Positions 13,464-38,332 of a stretch of 64,000 bases of DNA are shown here, piece after piece. The notes under the pieces were generated by a model that worked only from the letters and a program-made list of their open reading frames with translations, was not told the DNA's origin and made no database searches. The stretch comes from an uncultured archaeon (GTDB lineage: Archaea; Asgardarchaeota; Lokiarchaeia; Sigyniarchaeales; SOKP01): NCBI GenBank assembly GCA_964493715.1, contig CAZBPC010000011.1, positions 880-64,879 of the forward strand. Direction: 5' to 3'. The position numbers and the translations under genes are program-made. The stretch's first letter is position 1, and the number at the start of each line of letters is the position of its first letter.

Positions 13464-15533
13464 ATGAAAGTTCAAACCAATTTTTCAAATTTTGATGTAC
13501 ACATAATCTCGAAGGAATTAGATCAAATTCTTTCAGAAGGAACAATATTAAATATTTATGAATTAGAAGATTTATTAATTTTAAAAATTTCGACCAAAGC
13601 GAGGGAAAAAGTTAATCTAATTGTAAAAAATGATTCGAGAATAAACTTAACAGATTATGATTATCCAATTCCTAAATATCCAAGCCAATATATTACGTCG
13701 CTGAGAAAATTACTGAAGAATAGGAAGATTAAATCTGTTTCTCAATATGAATTTGATAGAATAATCATTATCGAAATTTATTCTTATGAAGAAGGAGATT
13801 CAAAATTCATAATTGAATTATTTAACAAAGGAAATTATCTATTTTTAGATGAAAACAATATTATAAAAATAGCTAAATCATACAAAAAGTTTAGGGATAG
13901 AGATGTTTTAGCAAATCGAAAATATGAATTTCCAAGCCAAAGGAGTATTGGATTTTTAACTATTAATGAGATGGAGTTTATTGATGTAATAAGAAACTCG
14001 GATGATGAAATTGTAAGAATCTTAGCAAGAAACATTGGTATTTCGGGGCTAATTAGTGAAGAATTATGTTATAGATCGAAAATAGAAAAAACACATAATG
14101 CACAATCGCTTAGTGATATTCAGCTAAAAGAACTTTTTAATATTTTTAAAAATCTCAGAAATCAACTGCTATTTGGAGAAATAAATGCCCATATTATCTA
14201 TGATGAAAATGATAACCAAATTGCCGTTCTACCATTTGAGTTAGAAACTTTTCGGGATTATAAAAAAATATTTTATAACTCATTTAATCAAGCTGTGGAT
14301 AATTATTATTCTAAATTAGACCTTTCAGTAATAGATCCACAGCAAAATCAAAAAATTAATGATAAAATAGATGCTTATAAAAGAATCCTGCAAAACCAAG
14401 AAGATTATCTCCAGGAATTATATGAAAAAAAAGAAAGATATTATAATTATGGAGATTTCATTTATGCTCATTTTAATGAATTTGAAAAACTTTTTTATGT
14501 CATTTCTGATGCAAAAGATAAAGGATATGATTGGTATGAAATAAATAAAAAGCTATTGGATGCAAAAAAGAATAAAGTAGAAGGCGTTGAATTTTTTGTT
14601 AAAATCATTCCTGAAAGTCGAGAATTGTTAGTTAATATCTTAAATCAAGAAGTAAAATTAGATATAAGAAAAACTATTGGTGAAAATGCGAATTTGATAT
14701 ATTCCAAAGGAAAAAAAGCTGAACAAAAAATAATGGGAACTATAGAAGCAATTAATAAATCTAAGGAAAAAATGACAAAATTTGTTAAAGAGAGAGAGTC
14801 TCTTGATGATGAGGTGGTAGGGTTAGTAAAGAAAAGAAAACAAGCATGGTACGAGAAGTTTAGATGGTTTCATTCTTCAAACGGATTTTTAATAGTTGGT
14901 GGTAGAGATGCTACTTCGAATGAAGTACTATTTAAAACGCATTTGCAACCAGAAGATCTTGTTTTCCATACAAATATTCCTGGATCCCCTCTTGTAATTG
15001 TTAAAAATCCAGATAATAAAGAGATACCTGAACAAACAATAAATGAGGCTGCAATTTTTGTAGGAAGCTATTCTAATGCCTGGAAAGAGGATTGGGGTTA
15101 CATAGATGTCTGGTATGTTAATCCGAATCAAGTATCAAAAACCCCCCCTACAGGTGAGTACTTACCTAAAGGATCTTTTATGATCTCTGGTAAGAAGAAT
15201 GTTATAAAAAATGCAAAAAATGAATTAGGGATTGGAATAGAAATAGAAGAATCAAAAACAGAGACTATTGGAGATGAGAGGGTTATATTCCCCAAAATTC
15301 TCTGTGGTCCTTTGAGTGCAATTAAAACTCAGGTCTCCCATATTATTAAAATAAAACCTTCGAAAGATGGTTTATCAAAAGGAAAGCTAGCGAAAGAAAT
15401 TAAGTCAATCCTTCTCAATCAGAGTGATGATCAATTTAAAAAATGGATAAAGTTACTAAAGGAAGATGATATTATCCTATCTCTCCCTTCTGGAAAATCA
15501 ATAATTGTCCCTAATTCATCTTTTGTTAACTAA
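13464..15533 (+). CDS. NFACT-family protein (Rqc2/RqcH/FbpA homologue, ribosome quality control)
   Basis: N-terminal NFACT-N-like region, a central coiled coil, and an NFACT-R/DUF814 motif: WFHSSNGFLIVGGRDATSNEVLFKTHLQPEDLVFHTNIPGSPLVIVK. Confidence 0.85.
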   Translation: MKVQTNFSNFDVHIISKELDQILSEGTILNIYELEDLLILKISTKAREKVNLIVKNDSRINLTDYDYPIPKYPSQYITSLRKLLKNRKIKSVSQYEFDRIIIIEIYSYEEGDSKFIIELFNKGNYLFLDENNIIKIAKSYKKFRDRDVLANRKYEFPSQRSIGFLTINEMEFIDVIRNSDDEIVRILARNIGISGLISEELCYRSKIEKTHNAQSLSDIQLKELFNIFKNLRNQLLFGEINAHIIYDENDNQIAVLPFELETFRDYKKIFYNSFNQAVDNYYSKLDLSVIDPQQNQKINDKIDAYKRILQNQEDYLQELYEKKERYYNYGDFIYAHFNEFEKLFYVISDAKDKGYDWYEINKKLLDAKKNKVEGVEFFVKIIPESRELLVNILNQEVKLDIRKTIGENANLIYSKGKKAEQKIMGTIEAINKSKEKMTKFVKERESLDDEVVGLVKKRKQAWYEKFRWFHSSNGFLIVGGRDATSNEVLFKTHLQPEDLVFHTNIPGSPLVIVKNPDNKEIPEQTINEAAIFVGSYSNAWKEDWGYIDVWYVNPNQVSKTPPTGEYLPKGSFMISGKKNVIKNAKNELGIGIEIEESKTETIGDERVIFPKILCGPLSAIKTQVSHIIKIKPSKDGLSKGKLAKEIKSILLNQSDDQFKKWIKLLKEDDIILSLPSGKSIIVPNSSFVN

Positions 15534-16253
15534 ATTAGTTATATATTCAATATTATTATGATTATCAAATAAAATTCCATCAATATTCATAGCAATAAGT
15601 TTTTTCATTATCGATATAGGATTCTCATATTCCATGAAATTCCATGCTAAAACTAATATATGATTTTCATGACACTTATTAATAATTTTTGAGGAAATTT
15701 TTTCTGAATTCAAACTTATTAAATCTGGTCTTTTAAGATAGATCTCTTCTGAACTTAAGTTAATGAAAGTCTCTAAGTCTGGGTTTTTGGCCTTAGTTAT
15801 GTTATAACATATTTGAGTAGAGGGATATTTCTCTTTTATCCTTAATAACTCTCCCAAATCTCTACTACTTATTACACATGAGTTTAATAGCCGTTTTTGA
15901 GATAAGATTTTTAAAATCTGTTCAATGATCTTATTTTCTTTTAATTCAATCATAAAGCAGATTTTATCACAAAAATTATCTAATACATCTTCTAATAATG
16001 GAATTTTTGACTTGTTCTTGATTGTATTAGCTTTAAGAATGTCTGGATATATCATATCTTTAACTTTACCAACACTATCAGTGGTTCGATTTACAGTTTC
16101 ATCATGAATAACTACTAATTTTCCATCTTTAGAACATCTAATATCAAACTCAATGTAGTTTGCTCCTTTATTAATGGCGATATTAAATGCCTCTAAAGTA
16201 TTCTCATCAAATTGATATCTGGTGCCTCTGTGACCAATTAAAAAGAACTTCAT
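15516..16253 (-). CDS. glycerophosphodiester phosphodiesterase
   Basis: LIGHRG...ENTLEAF..AI..GANYIEFDIRCSKDGKLVVIHDETVNRTT is the canonical GDPD N-terminal signature. Confidence 0.85.
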   Translation of the reverse strand: MKFFLIGHRGTRYQFDENTLEAFNIAINKGANYIEFDIRCSKDGKLVVIHDETVNRTTDSVGKVKDMIYPDILKANTIKNKSKIPLLEDVLDNFCDKICFMIELKENKIIEQILKILSQKRLLNSCVISSRDLGELLRIKEKYPSTQICYNITKAKNPDLETFINLSSEEIYLKRPDLISLNSEKISSKIINKCHENHILVLAWNFMEYENPISIMKKLIAMNIDGILFDNHNNIEYITNLVNKR

Positions 16254-30148: not shown

Positions 30149-33100
30149 TTGACCTATATTAAAAAAATTTCAATGACAGGTTTTAAATCTTTTGGTGAAA
30201 GAACAGTAACCATTAGACTCTCAAGCGGATTCACTTGCATTGTTGGTCCAAATGGTGCGGGTAAATCTAATATAATTGATGCATTGTGTTTTGCTCTTGG
30301 ACGTTTAAGCAAAAAAACATTAAGAGCGAAAAGTTTAGAAGATTTAATTTTTGCAGGGTCTAGGGGTAAAAATCCTTCTCAGAGGGCGTCTGTAACCTTA
30401 TCTTTTGATAATTCCGAGAATATTTTTCCAGGAGGGACAGATACATTTGATATAACTCGCACTATTAAAAAGGGTGGAGGAGGAGGTTATAAAATGAATG
30501 AAAAAAAAACCACTCGTCAACAGATTCTTAATGCTCTAGCAGCTGCTAATATAGATCCAGATGGAAGTAATCAGTTTGTACTCCAAGGGAAGATTGTAGA
30601 ATTAACTCATATGAATGCAGAAGATCGGCGGTTATTTATCGAAGAACTTATTGGACTGCAAAAATATGATGAGATGAAAGATTCTACAATGAAAGAATTA
30701 GAAAAAGCTGAGAGAGATCTAGGCCAATTTGAAGCTATTTTTAAAGAAGTCTCCGCACAACTGAAAAAAGTTGAAAAAGAAAAGAATGATGCTCTCACTT
30801 GGAAAGAATTTGATGAAAAAATCAAATTGTATAATGCTCAACTCATTGCGTTAAAAATATCAAAATTACGTGAAGAAGAAGCTCAATTAGAATTAAAAAT
30901 TGAAGATACCAATAAAATTATTGAAGAGGTCAATGAAAAAATCATTGTACAAGAAGACGTTTTAAAACAGGAATCTCTTGTGATGGATAACATTCAGAAA
31001 ACCATTGTTGAGAAAGAGAAAGAAAAGGAAACTATAAATGAAACCATAACTCAATTAAAAACTAATTTATCTTCAAATCAAACTTCTCTAAATATTACAC
31101 AAAAATCCATAGATAAATTACGTCAAGAAATTAAGGCATTAGAAATGAACCAAATGGAATTACAAGAAGGTCAAACGTTTGATTCATTAATTGAAGAAGT
31201 TTCTACTGAAATAGTAGAAAAGGAAAACAGCATTGAAGATTTAAAAAAAGAGATAGAAGAAAAACAACAAAGTCAAGCAGAATTTGATGGAAAGATAAAA
31301 GATAAAAATGAGGAAAAATCCTCTCATGAGGCTGAGATTTCAAAAATTAAACAAAAAATTTCTTCAAACAATACGCAAATAACTCTGCTTAAGGAAACTA
31401 TACAGAAAAACAAGGATAAAAAAGAGAAATTAATATCAGAACTAAATCGTATTAAAGGAGACGCTGAAAATGTAGATGATGCGATGAAATTAATAAAAGA
31501 ACAAGAGACTCAAACAAGAAATAATATCAATGGAATGAGAGCTAAAATAAATGAGGAAAAAAATAAGCAAAAAGATTTAGAGGGGCAAGTCACTCGAATT
31601 CAAGAAGAAAAAAGCAAATTAAATACAAAATTAGCTGAAATGCAATCTTTCCTCTCCTCCGTGAATACTGAAATTAAAATGAATATGGATAGAATTGAGA
31701 GATTAAACTCACAAAAAGTTACTATTGAAGAGAAGATTCAAGAACTAAGCAAAGGAAAAGATTCTGAGGAAGCCCTAAAAGAATTATTTAAAGAAAAGGA
31801 TACTCTACTAAAAGAATTAAGTGAATTAAAAGCTAAAGCAAAAGAGCGAGATTCTACTTTTAGAAGGAATGAACAAAATTTGGAATTAATGGTTATGAAG
31901 CAAAACTCTATTGAGTCCATGATTTTAGATAATAAGGCAAAAATAGAAAATTTAAACACTAGATTAAAAATAAATGATAAAGAACTCACCAGTTTAGAGA
32001 GAGAAAAACGAGATTTTGAACAAAAAGTCTTCTCACTTGAATCACATTTAACTAAAAATGATAAAGAGCTTGAAAATTATAATATAAAAAAAGAAAATGT
32101 TCAAAGAAGGATCGGAGAATTAAATAAAGAAAAAGACAATCTTCTAAAAAAGATTGAGATTACAGAAAAAGAGTATGAAAGTAATACCGAAGATATCTCA
32201 GGAATTCTTCAAATTTTAAGCATGCTAACCCAAAATATTAATATTTCAGTGGAATCAATAAAAAGCAATATACAGCAGTCAAATGCAGAGGCTATTGATA
32301 CATCTGCTGAAGATTTTAGAAAATTTGTTTTAGATATCATTGATATTATAAAAACAATGGATTATCTTGAAGAGGAAAAGGATTCTAAAGCTTCATCCAA
32401 CACACTCCATTCAATTCTTCAAACGCTTAATTTATTCACTAATAATGTTGATTTAACCATTGATCAACTAATTAGTAGAGTAAAAGAATCGGCAGATGTT
32501 GAAATCCAACAATCTACCTCAACTATTGATACACTAATTCAAGATTTGATGGAAATCCTTGAAAATGTCCATCTATCTTTGAGAAAACTCACAATGTCAA
32601 AAAGTCAAGAACTTTACAAGCAATTAGAAGAAATTTCTGAAAATATTAATTCTCAGAATGATGATTTAAACGAGATTGAGATGAAGGTCACGGAATTAAC
32701 CATTCAAAATAAACACGATTCCGAATCAATTACAGTCTCTAGTCAACGATTAGACGTGGTAAATAAACGCATACAAGAATTATCATATAATTTAAAGATA
32801 TATAATGAGGAAATTAAACAAAGAACTGAACAGATCAATAAAAAACAAGAAGAAAATCTTTTAGAATCAATAAATTCTTTAAAAACTTCCCGAGAGAGTT
32901 ATTGGGAGAAAAATGCGGTTTTACAATCTGAGATCGAAGAAAAACAAAGGGAATTGGATAGTCTTCAAAATAAATTGCAGGAACTTAAGGGAATCGAAAA
33001 TCTGATTGAATCTATGGTGGAAATCGATAAAAACGTTTTAGAATTAAATACTAAAAACGCAGAAAAGAAAGAGGTAATATTAAATACTGAAAAAGAAATT

Positions 33101-34585
33101 ACGACAAAAGAAGAAGAACGAAAAATTTTCGATGCAAACATTGAGCAATTAACAAAATCCAAAGATAAGTTTTGGGAGAATACTGAAGAACTCAATGCTC
33201 AAATTGATGAAGAAAATAAAATACTCGAAGAAACAATCGATAGACTCAGATCTCTAGAAAATATTATGATGATCATCAATAACATTGAAGAATTGACTAA
33301 AGAAAATGAAGATTCTGAAAATAACATCAAAACATGCTTGGGAGCTATTGAAGAAGCTAATATTGGAGTCGAAGATATTCAAAAACTCATCGATAAAATA
33401 CAACAGGAAATAATTGCATTTAGAGAGGAAAAAACTGAAGAACTTGAAGTACAAAAGAAAGCTCAGACCACACTTAATAAGTTTAATAAAGATCTTCAAA
33501 AAACCCAAAAGAAACTAAATGAGCTCAATAAGAATAAAGAACGCGAACAACAAATTGTAAACCTTAACCAAGATATCGAAGATACTGAAAAACAAATCCA
33601 AACAACTTTAAGCGAGATTGAGGTAATTAATAAGAACCTCGAAAGTGAAAATGAAAAGAAAATAATAAAACAACAAGATTTAGACGCACATGTTAAAGAA
33701 AAGGATGAATCTTGGAAACGACAAAAGGGATACCAAAAGACATTGAATGACCTCAAATCTGATCTTTCAATGGAACGATCGAAATTAAGCAATTTTGAAT
33801 CAAAAAAAACCATAAGCACTGAACAAATTGAAACGCTCTATCATAGATCTAAAGATTACGGCGCTTTACCACCAGTTACTGATGAACTTTCGGAAACTGG
33901 ACTCCAATCAGATATAATGGAAACTAATAAGAAAAAACAAGCACTCGAACCCGTTAACTTAAAAGCTATCGAGCAATATGACGCAGTAAAAGAGCGTTTT
34001 GATGAAATTGATATGCGAAGACAAACCATTCAGCGAGAACGCAAGTCAATTCTAGATGCAATTGATAAGATTGAACTCGAAAAGACTCGAACCTTTATGA
34101 AAGCATATCATGAGATCAACCGTGAATTCAGCCGGATATTCCAACAACTTAGCCCTGGTGGATCAGCCAAGATGATATTAGATCGACCTGATAAACCATT
34201 TGAAGGGGGAGTTTCCATCGAAGCTCGACCACGAGGTAAAAAAATCAGTAGCCTTGAAATTCTCAGTGGAGGGGAAAAAACTCTCGTAGCGCTCGCATTC
34301 ATTTTCGCGGTCCAGGAGTTTTACCCTGCTCCGTTTTATGTACTTGATGAGATCGATGCGGCCTTGGACGGTCCAAATGTTCACAGGGTTTCGACAGTCA
34401 TAAAAGAGTTTGCTTCACAAGCTCAATTCATGGTCATCAGTCATCGAGAGGAGAATATCGTCAATGCTGATCGTATATATGGCGTATCGATGCAACAATC
34501 AGGAATTACAGATATCTTTAATGTAGATTTAGAAGAGGAGGCAAAACGCATTCTTGAACTTCCAGATGTAGCTGAAACAGAATAA
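30149..34585 (+). CDS. smc: SMC-family ATPase, unusually long (1478 aa), present C-terminal tail supplied by an insertion
   Basis: N-terminal FKSF...GPNGAGKSNIIDA, Q-loop LQGK, C-terminal LSGGEKTLVALAFIFA and FYVLDEIDAALD. About 1,100 aa of K/E-rich coiled coil lie in between. TTG start preceded by GGAG. Confidence 0.85.
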   Translation: MTYIKKISMTGFKSFGERTVTIRLSSGFTCIVGPNGAGKSNIIDALCFALGRLSKKTLRAKSLEDLIFAGSRGKNPSQRASVTLSFDNSENIFPGGTDTFDITRTIKKGGGGGYKMNEKKTTRQQILNALAAANIDPDGSNQFVLQGKIVELTHMNAEDRRLFIEELIGLQKYDEMKDSTMKELEKAERDLGQFEAIFKEVSAQLKKVEKEKNDALTWKEFDEKIKLYNAQLIALKISKLREEEAQLELKIEDTNKIIEEVNEKIIVQEDVLKQESLVMDNIQKTIVEKEKEKETINETITQLKTNLSSNQTSLNITQKSIDKLRQEIKALEMNQMELQEGQTFDSLIEEVSTEIVEKENSIEDLKKEIEEKQQSQAEFDGKIKDKNEEKSSHEAEISKIKQKISSNNTQITLLKETIQKNKDKKEKLISELNRIKGDAENVDDAMKLIKEQETQTRNNINGMRAKINEEKNKQKDLEGQVTRIQEEKSKLNTKLAEMQSFLSSVNTEIKMNMDRIERLNSQKVTIEEKIQELSKGKDSEEALKELFKEKDTLLKELSELKAKAKERDSTFRRNEQNLELMVMKQNSIESMILDNKAKIENLNTRLKINDKELTSLEREKRDFEQKVFSLESHLTKNDKELENYNIKKENVQRRIGELNKEKDNLLKKIEITEKEYESNTEDISGILQILSMLTQNINISVESIKSNIQQSNAEAIDTSAEDFRKFVLDIIDIIKTMDYLEEEKDSKASSNTLHSILQTLNLFTNNVDLTIDQLISRVKESADVEIQQSTSTIDTLIQDLMEILENVHLSLRKLTMSKSQELYKQLEEISENINSQNDDLNEIEMKVTELTIQNKHDSESITVSSQRLDVVNKRIQELSYNLKIYNEEIKQRTEQINKKQEENLLESINSLKTSRESYWEKNAVLQSEIEEKQRELDSLQNKLQELKGIENLIESMVEIDKNVLELNTKNAEKKEVILNTEKEITTKEEERKIFDANIEQLTKSKDKFWENTEELNAQIDEENKILEETIDRLRSLENIMMIINNIEELTKENEDSENNIKTCLGAIEEANIGVEDIQKLIDKIQQEIIAFREEKTEELEVQKKAQTTLNKFNKDLQKTQKKLNELNKNKEREQQIVNLNQDIEDTEKQIQTTLSEIEVINKNLESENEKKIIKQQDLDAHVKEKDESWKRQKGYQKTLNDLKSDLSMERSKLSNFESKKTISTEQIETLYHRSKDYGALPPVTDELSETGLQSDIMETNKKKQALEPVNLKAIEQYDAVKERFDEIDMRRQTIQRERKSILDAIDKIELEKTRTFMKAYHEINREFSRIFQQLSPGGSAKMILDRPDKPFEGGVSIEARPRGKKISSLEILSGGEKTLVALAFIFAVQEFYPAPFYVLDEIDAALDGPNVHRVSTVIKEFASQAQFMVISHREENIVNADRIYGVSMQQSGITDIFNVDLEEEAKRILELPDVAETE
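34552..34569. repeat. left copy of an 18-bp direct repeat (tcttgaacttccagatgt), inside the smc 3' end
   Basis: Identical 18-mer at 37962-37979. The flanks diverge immediately on both sides. Confidence 0.85.
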
Positions 34586-34613
34586 ATAAGGTTATAAAAA
34601 ATAGATAAAAAAT

Positions 34614-37268
34614 CTAATATTCTTTCCTACATTTATAACAAGGCTCAATGTTTTGCTTTCGTAATTGTTTGAAGTTCTTTGGGGTCATAGTGAATTTGTG
34701 ATTTCTTTCACATTTAATTTGTACTTTTATAGTATTTTTTTCATATTCTGAAATCAGCGAATAATTCATTGTTTTGAGCATTTCGAGGAACTTATTTTTT
34801 GCTGCTTCAATTTTTGCTAGATTAGGATCGTTACATATCTTGCACCAATGACCTTGGTAGATAGCTCCCGGTATGGGTTCCCAAATGTGCCCTTTTTTAC
34901 ATCGAATTTTTATGGGTTTGAACCTACCCTTGTAAGGAGTTAATATCTCACCGCCTTTATTAAGCACAATTTCCTTAAATTTGTTAGCATTTATGTCCAT
35001 TTGGCATTTTGGGCACAATATTTCAATTGTTTTGCTATTTCTCTTCAGCCAGTATGGATCTTTTCTAAACCTGTGCCCTCTATCGCACTTGAAATGTAAG
35101 GATGTTTTTGCGTTTACATATTCATCAAGCAATTCACAATCAAACATCCTTCCTATTTCTTGGAATTCCTCACTTGTTCCTTTTTTGTTTCCAACACATT
35201 CAGGGCACCAATTATTCATATATATGGAATTAGGAGTGGTTCTCCATTCATGTCCACGTTCACATAAGAGGGTAACTTCTTTTTTTGCTGTAAAATAAGG
35301 AGTTAATAGAGTTCCTCCTTTTTCTTCAACATAGTTTCTGAATTTCTTAGCATTTTTATTTTCATAAATCGAAAATTCACGATAGTCATATTTTGGAATG
35401 ACCTCCAGAGATTTCCCCGATTTTCTTTCGTATTCTTTTACAATATAATCTTGCATTTTATCATAGGGCACAATTTCATCGTCGGGTATTTGGAGGAGTG
35501 ACACTCCATTTTCTTCACATTTTTTTAACTTGTAAGCATCTTCTTTTTGTATATTCTTTATATCCTCATCTTTAAGCCCAAATGCTTTCTTGCGATGTTG
35601 AATCCCTTGATATTCACCTGCTAGAGCTAAATTTTTGTTATACATATCAAGCTCCATTTGATTTCCGTTTTTATTAACAAGCCAAGGAGGATAGCTTTTC
35701 GGGAATGGTCGCTTAAAAACATGCTCAAAAAATTGCCTGCAAATTGTTTCTCCAACATAAATGTGGCAATTAGGGCACCACGTACCGTGATATACTAAAC
35801 TATCATAAGAAGTGCTAAACTTATGCCCTTCTGCACATTCAAGTTGAATTTTTGATTTCGCATTTTTAATGGTCATAGAAAGGCACTTTCCTCCTTTCTT
35901 CTTAGCTATCTCTTTTACAGTGTCAATTGATACATGCATTTGAGTTCGAATAAATTCTTCGTAGTTCTCATCAGGAAACATTTTTTGTAAGAAATTTCGT
36001 GCTGCAGTATCACTAATGAGGAGCCACTCTTGGATGTCATATGCGTTGTATATACCCTTGTTATTATGAATTTTTTCTCGAATTGTTTTATTTAAAACAT
36101 CTTCCTCCATGATTTTAGAGATTAAGTTGATATAATATGAAATAGTCTTTAGTTGGTCTTTATTTTCCAGCTTTTCTTTCTTCTCAGCTAAAAAATTTAA
36201 GAATGTTTTGGTTGGTTTGAAATTTTTAATCCAATTACTTGATTTATTGAATTCAGTGATAACTTGGTTTATAAAATCATTATCATGAGTATAGTCTAAA
36301 AATTGTTCAAACAATTCAGAATTTTGAGAAGAAGCATCAATCATTTGATTTTTATTTATACTAAAGTTTTTTAACTCCTCATGGAAATCCTCATCTTGTC
36401 GATGATTCTCAATTTTGATAAGACTCATTATTCCTGATTTAGTAAACTTTTGAGTTAACCCTTCTCCATAAAATTCGTGATATGCGGAAAATACATCAAA
36501 TGCGGTTAATTTCGCTCTCTTAACTTCTCTACTTTCAAGATTTAAACCAAGAAGACATCTACACGTTCCAACATTTAAGATATCATCATAATTCTGCTTG
36601 ATGTCATATAAACTCCTTTCTCGCGTGTTTTCTGGGGAATTCAGCACATCATTGCTCCTCAAAATGCCTTTTTGCCAATCATTCAAGTGATTTCTAAGTG
36701 ATTTAGAAAGTGGTCTAAGTTTTTGATGATCATTGAGGATTTCGGAATGTATTCGAAGGTGCTTGAGGAGTCGTGTGTATTGATTGATGATTTCTTTCAT
36801 CCCATCTTTTATTGCTTTACTTATTTTATTGAGATTCGTATCATCCCCTTTTTTCAAAGCTTTTTTCTGTTTTCTGGTTAACTGCTTGAGATATCCATTG
36901 GAAATCCCGTCCATGTAGCGGGAAACTATGGGTGCCCCTCTTCCACTTGTGATACAGTAGATCCATCCTCTTACGAAGGTTTCTAATTCTTGAGGGAATT
37001 TTGAACGTATTTCCTCAAGTAATTTACTTGGCGGGAGTGCTGACTTGTCAAAAAAACAAGCTAAGGTGGCGTCCGTGAAATTTCCAATCATTTCATCCAC
37101 ATAGATTAAGGAGAGATGATGTTTCTTACATTTGGGATGCTTTCCAAATCCAAAGAACCTGAATTTAAGCGGTTTTACCCGTGTCATGTACTCACATCCA
37201 AAAAGAGGGTAAATTGCAATCCGATCTTCACCAACCGTTTTTCGTGATACTCCAATGTCCTCATTCAT
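34614..37268 (-). CDS. 884-aa protein with five zinc-ribbon modules, a PD-(D/E)XK (Vsr-like) nuclease core and an unknown N-terminal region
   Basis: Five repeats of C-x2-GH-x(n)-C-x2-C: CAEGHKF..WCPNC, CERGHEW..WCPEC, CDRGHRF..CPKC, CKKGHIW..WCKIC, CERNHKF..CYKC. Between modules 1 and 2 lies GETICRQFFE...ELDMYNKNLALAGEYQGIQH...D..K...NGVSLLQIP, which resembles Vsr/DUF559-type endonuclease cores. Confidence 0.7.
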   Translation of the reverse strand: MNEDIGVSRKTVGEDRIAIYPLFGCEYMTRVKPLKFRFFGFGKHPKCKKHHLSLIYVDEMIGNFTDATLACFFDKSALPPSKLLEEIRSKFPQELETFVRGWIYCITSGRGAPIVSRYMDGISNGYLKQLTRKQKKALKKGDDTNLNKISKAIKDGMKEIINQYTRLLKHLRIHSEILNDHQKLRPLSKSLRNHLNDWQKGILRSNDVLNSPENTRERSLYDIKQNYDDILNVGTCRCLLGLNLESREVKRAKLTAFDVFSAYHEFYGEGLTQKFTKSGIMSLIKIENHRQDEDFHEELKNFSINKNQMIDASSQNSELFEQFLDYTHDNDFINQVITEFNKSSNWIKNFKPTKTFLNFLAEKKEKLENKDQLKTISYYINLISKIMEEDVLNKTIREKIHNNKGIYNAYDIQEWLLISDTAARNFLQKMFPDENYEEFIRTQMHVSIDTVKEIAKKKGGKCLSMTIKNAKSKIQLECAEGHKFSTSYDSLVYHGTWCPNCHIYVGETICRQFFEHVFKRPFPKSYPPWLVNKNGNQMELDMYNKNLALAGEYQGIQHRKKAFGLKDEDIKNIQKEDAYKLKKCEENGVSLLQIPDDEIVPYDKMQDYIVKEYERKSGKSLEVIPKYDYREFSIYENKNAKKFRNYVEEKGGTLLTPYFTAKKEVTLLCERGHEWRTTPNSIYMNNWCPECVGNKKGTSEEFQEIGRMFDCELLDEYVNAKTSLHFKCDRGHRFRKDPYWLKRNSKTIEILCPKCQMDINANKFKEIVLNKGGEILTPYKGRFKPIKIRCKKGHIWEPIPGAIYQGHWCKICNDPNLAKIEAAKNKFLEMLKTMNYSLISEYEKNTIKVQIKCERNHKFTMTPKNFKQLRKQNIEPCYKCRKEY

Positions 37269-37888
37269 GATAACAATCTCTCCTCTCGAAGTTTTGTAGA
37301 ACTTGCATTCTTCACTCGTGATACTTCTCCTATTAAATCCTTAAGTTCTTTCTCTAAATTACCATAATTTATTTCAAGTTCATCATAAAACGTGTAAAAT
37401 TCCGCGTTTAAGCACTTTTTCACAAAAATAATGTTTTTACTTAGTATTACGATAAATTTAAGAAATTTAGGATGGTCATAAATGCTTCCCTCTGAAAAAG
37501 AGTGAATCAAGTTGGAAATTTTTTCAGTAACATTTGAAAGTTTGTTAAGCCTTGTTGGTTTCTTATCAAAATGCAGATAATATATATCTTGTTCAATCGT
37601 GCTGCCATCTCTCTTAAGACTTTTTAGCAAGGATATGAATTCCTGAGATAATGATTCAATCTTTTGTTTTTGGGTATAAAACGTGCTTTTGGTGTAACTC
37701 TTGTTCGGATCACGATTAGAAGGAACATTAGATTGAAATCTAAATTGGATTACTTCTGCTTTATAATTGAAAAAGGTTCGAAGTTGTCGAGACAATTCCT
37801 TTATCTTTCTTGCACCTTCTTTTTCATAGATATCACTAAAAAGGGCATCAAGTTCTGATTCTGTATAAAAATCAATATAATCTGTCAT
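37265..37888 (-). CDS. hypothetical protein (207 aa), translationally coupled to the 884-aa gene
   Basis: 4-nt ATGA overlap with the downstream gene. No motif recognised. Confidence 0.55.
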   Translation of the reverse strand: MTDYIDFYTESELDALFSDIYEKEGARKIKELSRQLRTFFNYKAEVIQFRFQSNVPSNRDPNKSYTKSTFYTQKQKIESLSQEFISLLKSLKRDGSTIEQDIYYLHFDKKPTRLNKLSNVTEKISNLIHSFSEGSIYDHPKFLKFIVILSKNIIFVKKCLNAEFYTFYDELEINYGNLEKELKDLIGEVSRVKNASSTKLREERLLS

Positions 37889-37961
37889 AAGTCATTATTC
37901 TGCCTAATTTACTATCTAATTATAACAGTTATATTTAAAGAGCAAAAATAGTTAAGATAAA

Positions 37962-37979
37962 TCTTGAACTTCCAGATGT
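37962..37979. repeat. right copy of the 18-bp direct repeat
   Basis: Identical to 34552-34569. Confidence 0.85.
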
Positions 37980-38007
37980 TCCCGAAGATGACAAAGATAA
38001 CTTATAA
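37963..38007 (+). pseudogene. displaced ancestral 3' end of smc (LELPDVPEDDKDNL, then stop)
   Basis: Reading in the frame that the repeat has in smc gives ctt gaa ctt cca gat gtt ccc gaa gat gac aaa gat aac tta taa. There is no upstream ORF or start codon. Confidence 0.6.
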
Positions 38008-38110: not shown

Positions 38111-38332
38111 ATGAAAAATATCAGTAAAAGCATTCTTCATTGTCCCCGATGTAAAGGGTTTAAGGTCTGGGAACTTGACTCAAACATTTATTGTCCACAA
38201 TGTGAACTTACATTTAATAAATCTGTTCTAAAATGCATGAGTGATGATCTCATCTTAGCTATCGAAGAATTGGAAGGCATTATCCATCCTTTTAAAGAAA
38301 AGGGATTTGATCTTAAACCACTTATGGGATAA
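38111..38332 (+). CDS. small zinc-ribbon protein
   Basis: CPRC...CPQC pair near the N-terminus. Confidence 0.45.
   Translation: MKNISKSILHCPRCKGFKVWELDSNIYCPQCELTFNKSVLKCMSDDLILAIEELEGIIHPFKEKGFDLKPLMG

Follow-up and report, generated by a model that had tools for sequence, protein, structure and literature searches.

The stretch of DNA analyzed here (hereafter the window) comprises 64,000 nucleotides (nt) from an uncultured archaeon of the Lokiarchaeia (GenBank assembly GCA_964493715.1, contig CAZBPC010000011.1, positions 880 to 64,879), and the subject of this study is a 3.4-kb two-gene cassette located at the 3' end of the chromosomal gene smc. All coordinates refer to the window, and comparison loci from other genomes are labeled L001, L002 and so on. 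The smc gene (30149–34585, plus strand, 1478 amino acids [aa]) was recognized as an open reading frame (ORF) with 80 orthologs in Lokiarchaeia, and its homolog in L001 contains SMC_N and related AAA Pfam domains. Within its last codons lies the left copy (34552–34569, plus strand) of an 18-nt direct repeat, TCTTGAACTTCCAGATGT, the right copy of which is located at 37962–37979. After the left copy smc ends in ...KRILELPDVAETE-stop, i.e., ...ILELPDVAETE-stop, and after the right copy the same frame reads LELPDVPEDDKDNL-stop with no gene upstream of it. The 3,392 nt between the two copies contain only two genes, both on the minus strand, which encode proteins of 884 aa (34614–37268) and 207 aa (37265–37888) and are coupled by a 4-nt overlap (ATGA). 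A 28-nt spacer (34586–34613) that is conserved in L001, L003, and L005 separates the smc stop from the stop of the convergent 884-aa gene, and a 5' leader with a promoter-like region (37889–37961, minus strand) extends from the 207-aa gene to the right boundary of the element. A 73-aa zinc-ribbon gene follows downstream of the cassette at 38111.

An earlier reading of the letters alone (the sequence-only reading) had described the repeat at both sites, the exchanged tails and the two opposite-strand genes, and a recount in the window confirmed this description. Only the two copies of the 18-mer were found in the whole 64 kb and no third one when two mismatches were allowed (expectation for shuffled sequence: 0.01 matches). 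Terminal inverted repeats were absent (the two 100-nt ends of the cassette share inverted matches of at most 8 nt), and neither a tRNA gene nor an Rfam match was found for it. The window contains no second copy of the cassette and no scpA gene. The composition profile that had also been proposed gave no foreign mark: the GC content of the insert (0.329, compared with 0.288 for the window) was equaled or exceeded by 10.5% of equal-sized windows, and 14.5% of such windows deviated in tetranucleotide content as much as the insert or more, so that this test was uninformative.

Species-representative genomes were scanned with the last 300 residues of the SMC protein, which yielded 80 loci; nearly all of the homologs originated from metagenome-assembled genomes (MAGs) labeled as Promethearchaeota, Lokiarchaeota, or other Asgard lineages. 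The cassette gene pair was present at the identical point of smc in L001/L002, L003/L004, and L005 (the contig of L005 stops inside the homolog of the 884-aa gene, the putative nuclease gene), and each of these loci has the AETE tail. The complete layout, with smc ending in ...LELPDV-AETE-stop followed by the 884-aa and 207-aa genes and a fragment of the native smc end, was also found in L001 and L003; the retained fragment reads ...ILELPDFPKEVIDN-stop in L003 and is a longer remnant, stop-EAKRILELPDIPKEVIDN-stop, in L001. The predicted empty site was found in L006 (MAG bin22), whose SMC C-terminus is 95% identical and whose smc ends in the native-type tail ...KRILELPDFPKEVIDN-stop (...LELPDFPKEVIDN), with the 73-aa gene directly next to it. 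The PKEVIDN tails are common to the displaced fragment of L003 and the empty L006, and the L003 fragment together with 170 nt downstream is identical to the native L006 sequence at 183 of 184 positions. Across the 80 loci, LELPDVAETE-stop is the smc end of all occupied relatives and AETE was seen solely together with the cassette, the native tail being of the form P/E-x5-7 with E or N usually as the last residue.

The insertion is polymorphic among close relatives, and the tail of smc is replaced. The occupied (L001, L003, L005, and the window) and empty (L006) alleles bear out the proposal of the sequence-only reading that a real insertion took place at the smc 3' end, and the restriction of AETE to cassette-bearing genomes agrees with its proposal that this tail came with the element. 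Likewise, the match between the L003 fragment and L006 supports the view that the PEDDKDNL-type fragment of the window (37962–38007, plus strand), which begins with the right repeat copy, represents the displaced native smc C-terminus and is now a non-coding remnant.

Comparison of L003 with L006 also bears on the upstream limit of the element. The two loci are identical from −180 to −53 of the junction and differ at −52, −49, −37, and −22, four positions at which the L003 haplotype is that of the occupied genomes. There are thus four substitutions within 52 nt of the junction, none in the next 128 nt, and one in the 184 nt downstream; farther upstream, positions −181 to −229 form another divergent block, and the L003 sequence comes from a metagenomic contig of 3.8 kb. 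This distribution suggests that the element-associated segment may include about 50 nt of smc coding sequence, as a co-conversion tract or an "inserted C-terminal". In the window such a segment would occupy 34516–34585 (plus strand), i.e., about 52 nt of smc coding sequence before the junction and then the surrogate V-AETE-stop (34568–34585), its extent being derived from the relatives and not from the window, and smc would be a hybrid of a native body and an element-associated C-terminal end. A foreign origin of the surrogate end may fit its likeness to the tail of a cassette-free lineage: DVAETE-stop is similar to the native DVVETDVE-stop of L008. The converse possibility, that L006 once had the cassette and lost it through recombination between the repeats, is disfavored because the occupied haplotype at −52 to −22 is missing from L006 and native-type tails are the rule in the 80 loci. 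Two further contigs, L007 (contig end 8881, ...KRILEL) and L079 (contig end 8847, ...LEEEA), stop inside the last smc codons near the junction, which is consistent with assembly breaks caused by mixed occupied and empty alleles in a population.

The repeat itself varies between copies of the same insertion, measuring 15 nt in L003, 18 nt in the window, and about 33 nt with four mismatches in L001, and about 27 nt that were kept in L001 are missing from the window and from L003. In the distant lineage L057 the duplication is 175 nt long at 88.6% identity, in other cassettes of the family imperfect duplications of 32 to at least 162 nt were seen, and the distance from repeat to gene varies across cassettes. 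Since repeat length and identity differ between copies of one insertion, the 18-nt repeat can be read as the eroded overlap of two smc ends, one presumably borne by the element and the other native, rather than as an att core. Variable and imperfect repeats are the pattern expected of a mobile endonuclease ORF with a surrogate gene end, not of a crossover core or a target-site duplication. With repeats of 15, 18, about 33, and 175 nt that are imperfect, and with no recombinase found, the framing given in the sequence-only reading, an integrase-type event with a duplicated 18-bp att core, was not supported. Its observation that no recombinase or transposase is visible did hold, as no recombinase, transposase or Cas1 family was matched by the cassette proteins in Pfam, NCBIfam, or PHROGs. 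Integrase-family matches were neither on record for the neighboring genes of those cassettes that were looked up nor present in the 10 cassette proteins scanned. The features expected of a DNA transposon or casposon were not found either, as shown by the 8-nt maximal inverted match, the lack of a transposase or Cas1 match, and the varying duplication length.

The 884-aa protein consists of an N-terminal domain (NTD; residues 1–285, 36414–37268, minus strand) and a C-terminal module (residues 301–884, 34614–36368, minus strand). The AlphaFold2 model of the latter (mean pLDDT 88.8) contains a helical linker, a nuclease core (residues 503–600, 35469–35762, minus strand) and five Cys/His treble-clef zinc fingers of the DUF4379/CapR type. 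A Foldseek search of BFVD with this module returned 242 matches at E ≤ 1e-3, the best of which were giant-virus proteins described as zinc-ribbon or "restriction endonuclease" proteins (down to 1.8e-32), and phage matches at about 1e-13 were annotated as "Homing endonuclease" and "Group I intron-associated VSR homing endonuclease". The sole meaningful Foldseek match in the PDB was the catalytic domain of I-Bth0305I (3r3p_B; probability 0.87, TM-score 0.60 on the target, E-value 0.33 for the 584-residue query). Six residues, E507, D541, E552, H558, D577, and K580, were invariant in an alignment of 23 diverse family members, and the spacing of 17 residues from D541 to H558 equals that from D196 to H213 of I-Bth0305I (PMC3239194), a correspondence drawn from spacing and not from superposition. 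E507, D541, H558, and D577 would accordingly fit the composite EDxHD motif, I-Bth0305I being the prototype of the Vsr-like EDxHD family, which also has free-standing phage enzymes (PMC3239194). The finger array was matched by PHROG 559 ("HNH endonuclease") at 3.6e-47. Weak matches to DUF2726, which we take to belong to the PD-(D/E)XK clan, were obtained for 7 of the 23 sequences (best E-value 0.003). Neither cassette protein had a match in NCBIfam or PADLOC, and phmmer and profile searches against PDB sequences gave nothing meaningful.

On the basis of the model and the conserved residues, the C-terminal module is probably a Vsr/EDxHD-type nuclease and a probable smc-specific homing endonuclease. 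The fallback offered by the sequence-only reading, that mobility depends on the nuclease/zinc-ribbon protein, is the best-supported one. Zinc fingers 3–5 (34635–35085) are the most divergent part of the cassette, with 64–75% DNA identity to every relative, which could be due to diversification of recognition fingers or to recombination with another variant.

Homologs of the C-terminal module were detected at the 3' end of smc in at least 17 loci of other Lokiarchaeia, several of which lack the 207-aa gene. These homologs of residues ~315–884 share 56–65% amino acid identity and are convergent with smc, and most of the smc-adjacent ones have different N-termini, with neither the NTD nor the 207-aa partner. 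They are located 13–79 nt from the smc stop in L017, L057, L067, L068, L073, L083, L084, L090, and L092 and about 685 nt from smc in L077 and L091, with partial copies in L005, L023, and L078. L092 originates from the marine-sediment metagenome LCGC14, in which Lokiarchaeota were reportedly first described. Target specificity tracks the C-terminal module, whose association with smc is exclusive. The empty counterparts of the distant occupied loci could not be aligned at the DNA level, which leaves their exact insertion points undefined.

Three of these loci have a more complex structure. In L057 (8989–15671) a 6.6-kb insert between smc and scpA is headed by a 462-aa homolog of the nuclease module, includes four unrelated cargo genes and is closed off, right before scpA, by 175 nt that duplicate the smc 3' end as a pseudo-copy (88.6% identity, stop codon included; 75-aa ORF at 15444–15671); this insert gives the impression of a larger island formed in the same way. 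About 685 nt with an ORF of ~185 aa separate the nuclease gene from smc in L077 (8913–9597; also in L091, 12470–13727), and a degenerate smc-tail fragment, GVTDVFSVDLEDVAKQKLE, adjoins the 3' end of the nuclease gene of L077, as if a later insertion had displaced the surrogate tail of the element. The nuclease gene and two other genes lie between smc and scpA/scpB in L090, with no surviving duplicate.

The remaining part of the cassette, the NTD and the 207-aa protein, belongs to a much wider family. The NTD starts with a Cys/His zinc-ribbon-like segment followed by an all-alpha domain (AlphaFold2 pTM 0.74), and its model gave no match to PDB folds (best E-value 1.6) and no recombinase, transposase or nuclease fold. 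An H-L-R-x-H string in the NTD that was considered as box II of a tyrosine recombinase was dropped, since the fold search gave no recombinase. The NTD is common to more than 110 protein clusters at 55–75% identity whose C-termini are unrelated, and its matches among 1.84 billion proteins comprised 99 representatives, always at residues 1–285. Behind it are found HNH_3, LAGLIDADG_3 with intein-like segments, RNase_T, PDDEXK_5 and winged-helix C-termini as well as many without a Pfam match. Homologs of the 207-aa protein, for which no match was obtained in Pfam, NCBIfam, PHROG, or PADLOC, form more than 200 clusters, all of about 203–207 aa, and a metagenome scan with their alignment yielded 73 loci.

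In all 37 modules examined, a homolog of the 207-aa gene was located directly upstream of the NTD gene with the same 4-nt overlap. A promoter-like motif of about 50 nt (TATA-like, tttaaatata...ataactgt.ataat...tagtaaa) is conserved upstream of the 207-aa homolog at the unrelated sites L085, L087, and L088. Imperfect direct repeats clearly above shuffled controls (18 to at least 162 nt, 76–88% identity) were found around 11 of the 33 modules with usable flanks; where such repeats were inspected, an intact host gene has one of the two copies as its 3' end, and the second copy is an orphan fragment. Convergence with the end of a host gene within 200 nt was seen for 15 of 31 modules. L108, L116, and L127 have one common target sequence, and hence each C-terminal type seems to have its own target. 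Judged from these comparisons, the NTD and the 207-aa protein form a conserved, Lokiarchaeia-restricted module that is fused to interchangeable putative nuclease types (HNH, LAGLIDADG, Vsr-like) at other gene ends. One HNH_3-type cassette of this family (L085, 5190–5306 and 8470–8689; same target in L097) is flanked by a 35-nt exact repeat together with a diverged copy of the last codons of the upstream gene, and the downstream copy holds a partial tandem duplication of an intergenic segment. NTD proteins with LAGLIDADG_3 and Intein_splicing-like segments at the C-terminus (L118, 3138–6239; P0056, P0057, P0070, and P0103) suggest that homing endonucleases originating from inteins have been added behind the NTD as free-standing modules.

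The cassettes at smc are mosaics with a sharp right-hand boundary and have been exchanged between lineages, because the similarity patterns of the identity tract, the flanks and the zinc-finger half differ. The window and L003 are 99–100% identical from about 36135 to 37977, a tract spanning the NTD, the 207-aa gene, the leader and the right repeat copy, with 97% and 90% identity in two 150-nt bins from 35835, and the identity falls to 85% immediately after "ccagat" (37977). The host flanks of the two are 85–91% identical. In the zinc-finger half of the C-terminal module the identity of the window to L003 is 68–74%, and that of L003 to L001/L005 is 93–95%.

The 3.4-kb segment probably represents a free-standing cassette of the "mobile ORF" type that encodes a homing endonuclease and is specific for the conserved smc 3' end in Lokiarchaeia (Promethearchaeota); cleavage, recognition site and homing are inferred. 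The nuclease of the C-terminal module with its five treble-clef fingers would recognize and cut the native smc 3' end on a cassette-free chromosome, the cut in the empty site being expected near the boundary of ...CTTGAACTTCCAGAT and TTTCC..., and the break would be repaired from a cassette-bearing copy. Repair would copy in the surrogate smc C-terminus (approximately the last 17 codons plus AETE-stop), the two genes and the promoter, and the native tail would stay downstream as a dead fragment. The surrogate tail would keep smc intact and at the same time split the recognition site, and should thereby protect the occupied allele from cleavage. The 18-nt repeat would then be the overlap of the surrogate and displaced smc ends, trimmed by later deletion, and the 207-aa and NTD module, a separate entity, would have been recombined onto the smc-specific nuclease in this lineage.

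Several observations weigh against this interpretation. Pfam searches with both proteins gave just a sub-threshold match to DUF4379 and no nuclease model over threshold, and the fold match in the PDB is weak for the query as a whole (E-value 0.33). Displaced smc fragments were sought in L017, L067, L068, L073, L083, L084, and L090 and none was found, and duplication of the tail is thus not universal; these distant occupied lineages have no scpA within 8 kb, and larger rearrangements are possible there. The nuclease gene lies on the strand opposite to smc, unlike in the fungal mobile ORFs discussed below. L003 and L004 are short metagenomic contigs, and chimeric assembly could explain part of the mosaicism. 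Finally, the most conserved part of the family is the 207-aa protein with the NTD and not any nuclease, and this pair could be the true determinant of mobility.

The last point can be developed into an explanation of its own, in which the 207-aa protein and the NTD constitute a new recombinase or integration machinery that inserts the cassette and the variable C-terminal module merely picks the target site. In more than 100 cassettes whose C-termini are unrelated, this pair forms the invariant core, with the same ATGA overlap and promoter-like leader; cassettes with HNH or unknown C-termini are likewise flanked by target duplications, and the 99–100% identity tract between the window and L003 covers exactly this pair and stops at the element boundary. 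Such a machinery would nevertheless have to account for the smc-adjacent homologs of the C-terminal module in at least nine lineages that have no NTD or 207-aa gene, L057 with its 175-nt smc duplication among them, and for cassette boundaries and repeat lengths that vary, unlike the products of a site-specific recombinase. As the NTD model also resembles no recombinase, transposase or nuclease fold in the PDB (best E-value 1.6) and the two proteins have no match in Pfam, NCBIfam, PHROG, or PADLOC, we regard this explanation as unlikely.

Flanking direct repeats and replaced last codons are known from archaeal and bacterial integrative elements, and the repeats that flank the insert far beyond chance, together with the exchange of the last smc codons, could also point to an integrase-driven element with an 18-bp att core in the smc 3' end, the integrase gene of which was lost later or acts in trans. 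This is highly improbable: no tyrosine or serine recombinase was found in about 40 cassettes inspected or in the window flanks, the repeat measures 15, 18 or about 33 nt among orthologous copies with mismatches in the longer ones, the cassette of just 3.4 kb has no replication or virion genes, and the position next to smc tracks the nuclease family rather than an integrase. Finally, the cassette might not be mobile by itself but be an accessory locus (e.g., for defense or addiction) that was acquired by horizontal transfer through one-sided homology-facilitated illegitimate recombination in smc, without homing. A hybrid gene end with a displaced fragment that varies in length would likewise be expected from one-sided homology with an illegitimate junction, a duplication is missing at several occupied loci, and two-gene loci made up of a nuclease and a partner are frequent among defense systems. 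Passive acquisition is quite improbable, though, in view of the recurrence of the same nuclease subfamily at the smc end in lineages with differing downstream neighborhoods, the recurrent targets that paralogous cassettes with a different C-terminal type each have of their own (one target sequence is common to L108, L116, and L127), and structural relatives annotated as homing endonucleases; moreover, PADLOC assigned no family to either protein.

The cassette at smc could also be placed in a broader scheme, which we put forward tentatively, as a possibility rather than an expectation. The 207-aa protein and the NTD may represent a Lokiarchaeia-restricted "carrier" platform that recombines with interchangeable site-specific nucleases (Vsr-like, HNH, LAGLIDADG/intein-derived, and others) and would thereby form a new class of modular selfish element at many host-gene 3' ends, complete with surrogate ends. 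The core would in this case be active in mobility, immunity or maintenance and not be a passenger.

The closest known counterparts are the mobile ORFs (mORFs) of fungal mitochondria, in which the "native C*-terminal" of a gene is pushed aside by an endonuclease ORF together with a foreign "inserted C-terminal"; the genes concerned are atp6 of Allomyces macrogynus and atp6, atp9, cox2, and nad3 of Glomus sp. (PMC3630166). Shared with the present case are the gene core, the inserted foreign C-terminal, the endonuclease ORF and the displaced native C*-terminal, and also the closer similarity of the native fragment than of the inserted one to the genes of relatives, the variable duplication length, and the sporadic distribution among close relatives (PMC3630166). 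The cassette described here differs in residing in an archaeal chromosome with smc as target instead of a mitochondrial genome, and in its nuclease, which is Vsr/EDxHD-like with a zinc-finger array rather than LAGLIDADG or GIY-YIG. Its nuclease gene is on the opposite strand with its own promoter-like leader, whereas the fungal ORF is co-oriented and often in frame with the host gene, and the nuclease is fused to the NTD and preceded by the 207-aa gene.

With EDxHD enzymes such as I-Bth0305I and those of the phage Hef type, the C-terminal module may share the core fold (3r3p_B, as given above with probability 0.87, TM-score 0.60, and E-value 0.33); it also has compatible E-D-x-H-D residues and the same D-to-H spacing, and free-standing members are known among these enzymes. 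It differs in that five treble-clef fingers would bind DNA in place of NUMOD/HTH motifs, in that no intron or intein is involved, and in the far larger protein (884 aa), whose similarity lies below Pfam and PDB profile thresholds. The seg and mob genes of T4-like phages are intron-less nuclease genes next to conserved genes; they are present in some relatives and missing from others, and their spread proceeds through double-strand-break repair, in which flanking markers are co-converted. The smc cassette has in common with them a free-standing nuclease gene beside a conserved gene that is optional in relatives; seg and mob are intergenic in the phage genome and leave the end of the adjacent gene in place, whereas here surrogate and displaced native tails occur in a cellular chromosome. 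Archaeal integrative elements of the SSV and pNOB8 types also have flanking direct repeats and restore the end of the target gene with element sequence, but the present cassette of 3.4 kb has no integrase, no fixed att core, and no replication or virion genes.

Literature searches gave no description of gene-end-replacing endonuclease ORFs in Asgard archaea or at smc, nor any account of the present cassette family in Asgard archaea. Elements of the mORF kind have already been described for fungal mitochondria; what is added here are mORF-like putative homing cassettes in an archaeal chromosome that are aimed at smc and tied to an uncharacterized, Lokiarchaeia-specific two-protein module. The empty smc site of L006 and the 884-aa protein constitute a concrete, testable pair of target and enzyme, and the predicted Vsr-type nuclease with its zinc-finger array could be of interest as a scaffold for the recognition of long DNA sites. 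A family of more than 100 nuclease-swapping cassettes could contribute substantially to micro-heterogeneity, contig breaks, and mosaic gene ends among Lokiarchaeia genomes, and hybrid gene ends and pseudo-fragments of this kind will be mis-called in annotation.

The surroundings of the cassette vary as well. In about 58 of the 80 smc loci scpA directly follows smc at a distance of approximately 70–85 nt. Nearly all of the nuclease-bearing loci have no scpA within 8 kb, and the empty L006, too, has the 73-aa zinc-ribbon gene after smc where scpA usually sits; smc and scpA may have become unlinked repeatedly at this hotspot. In L055 (8916–10538), the interval between smc and scpA holds a 277-aa gene plus two small ORFs, with no nuclease homolog among them, and the spacer between smc and scpA appears to be a general insertion hotspot.

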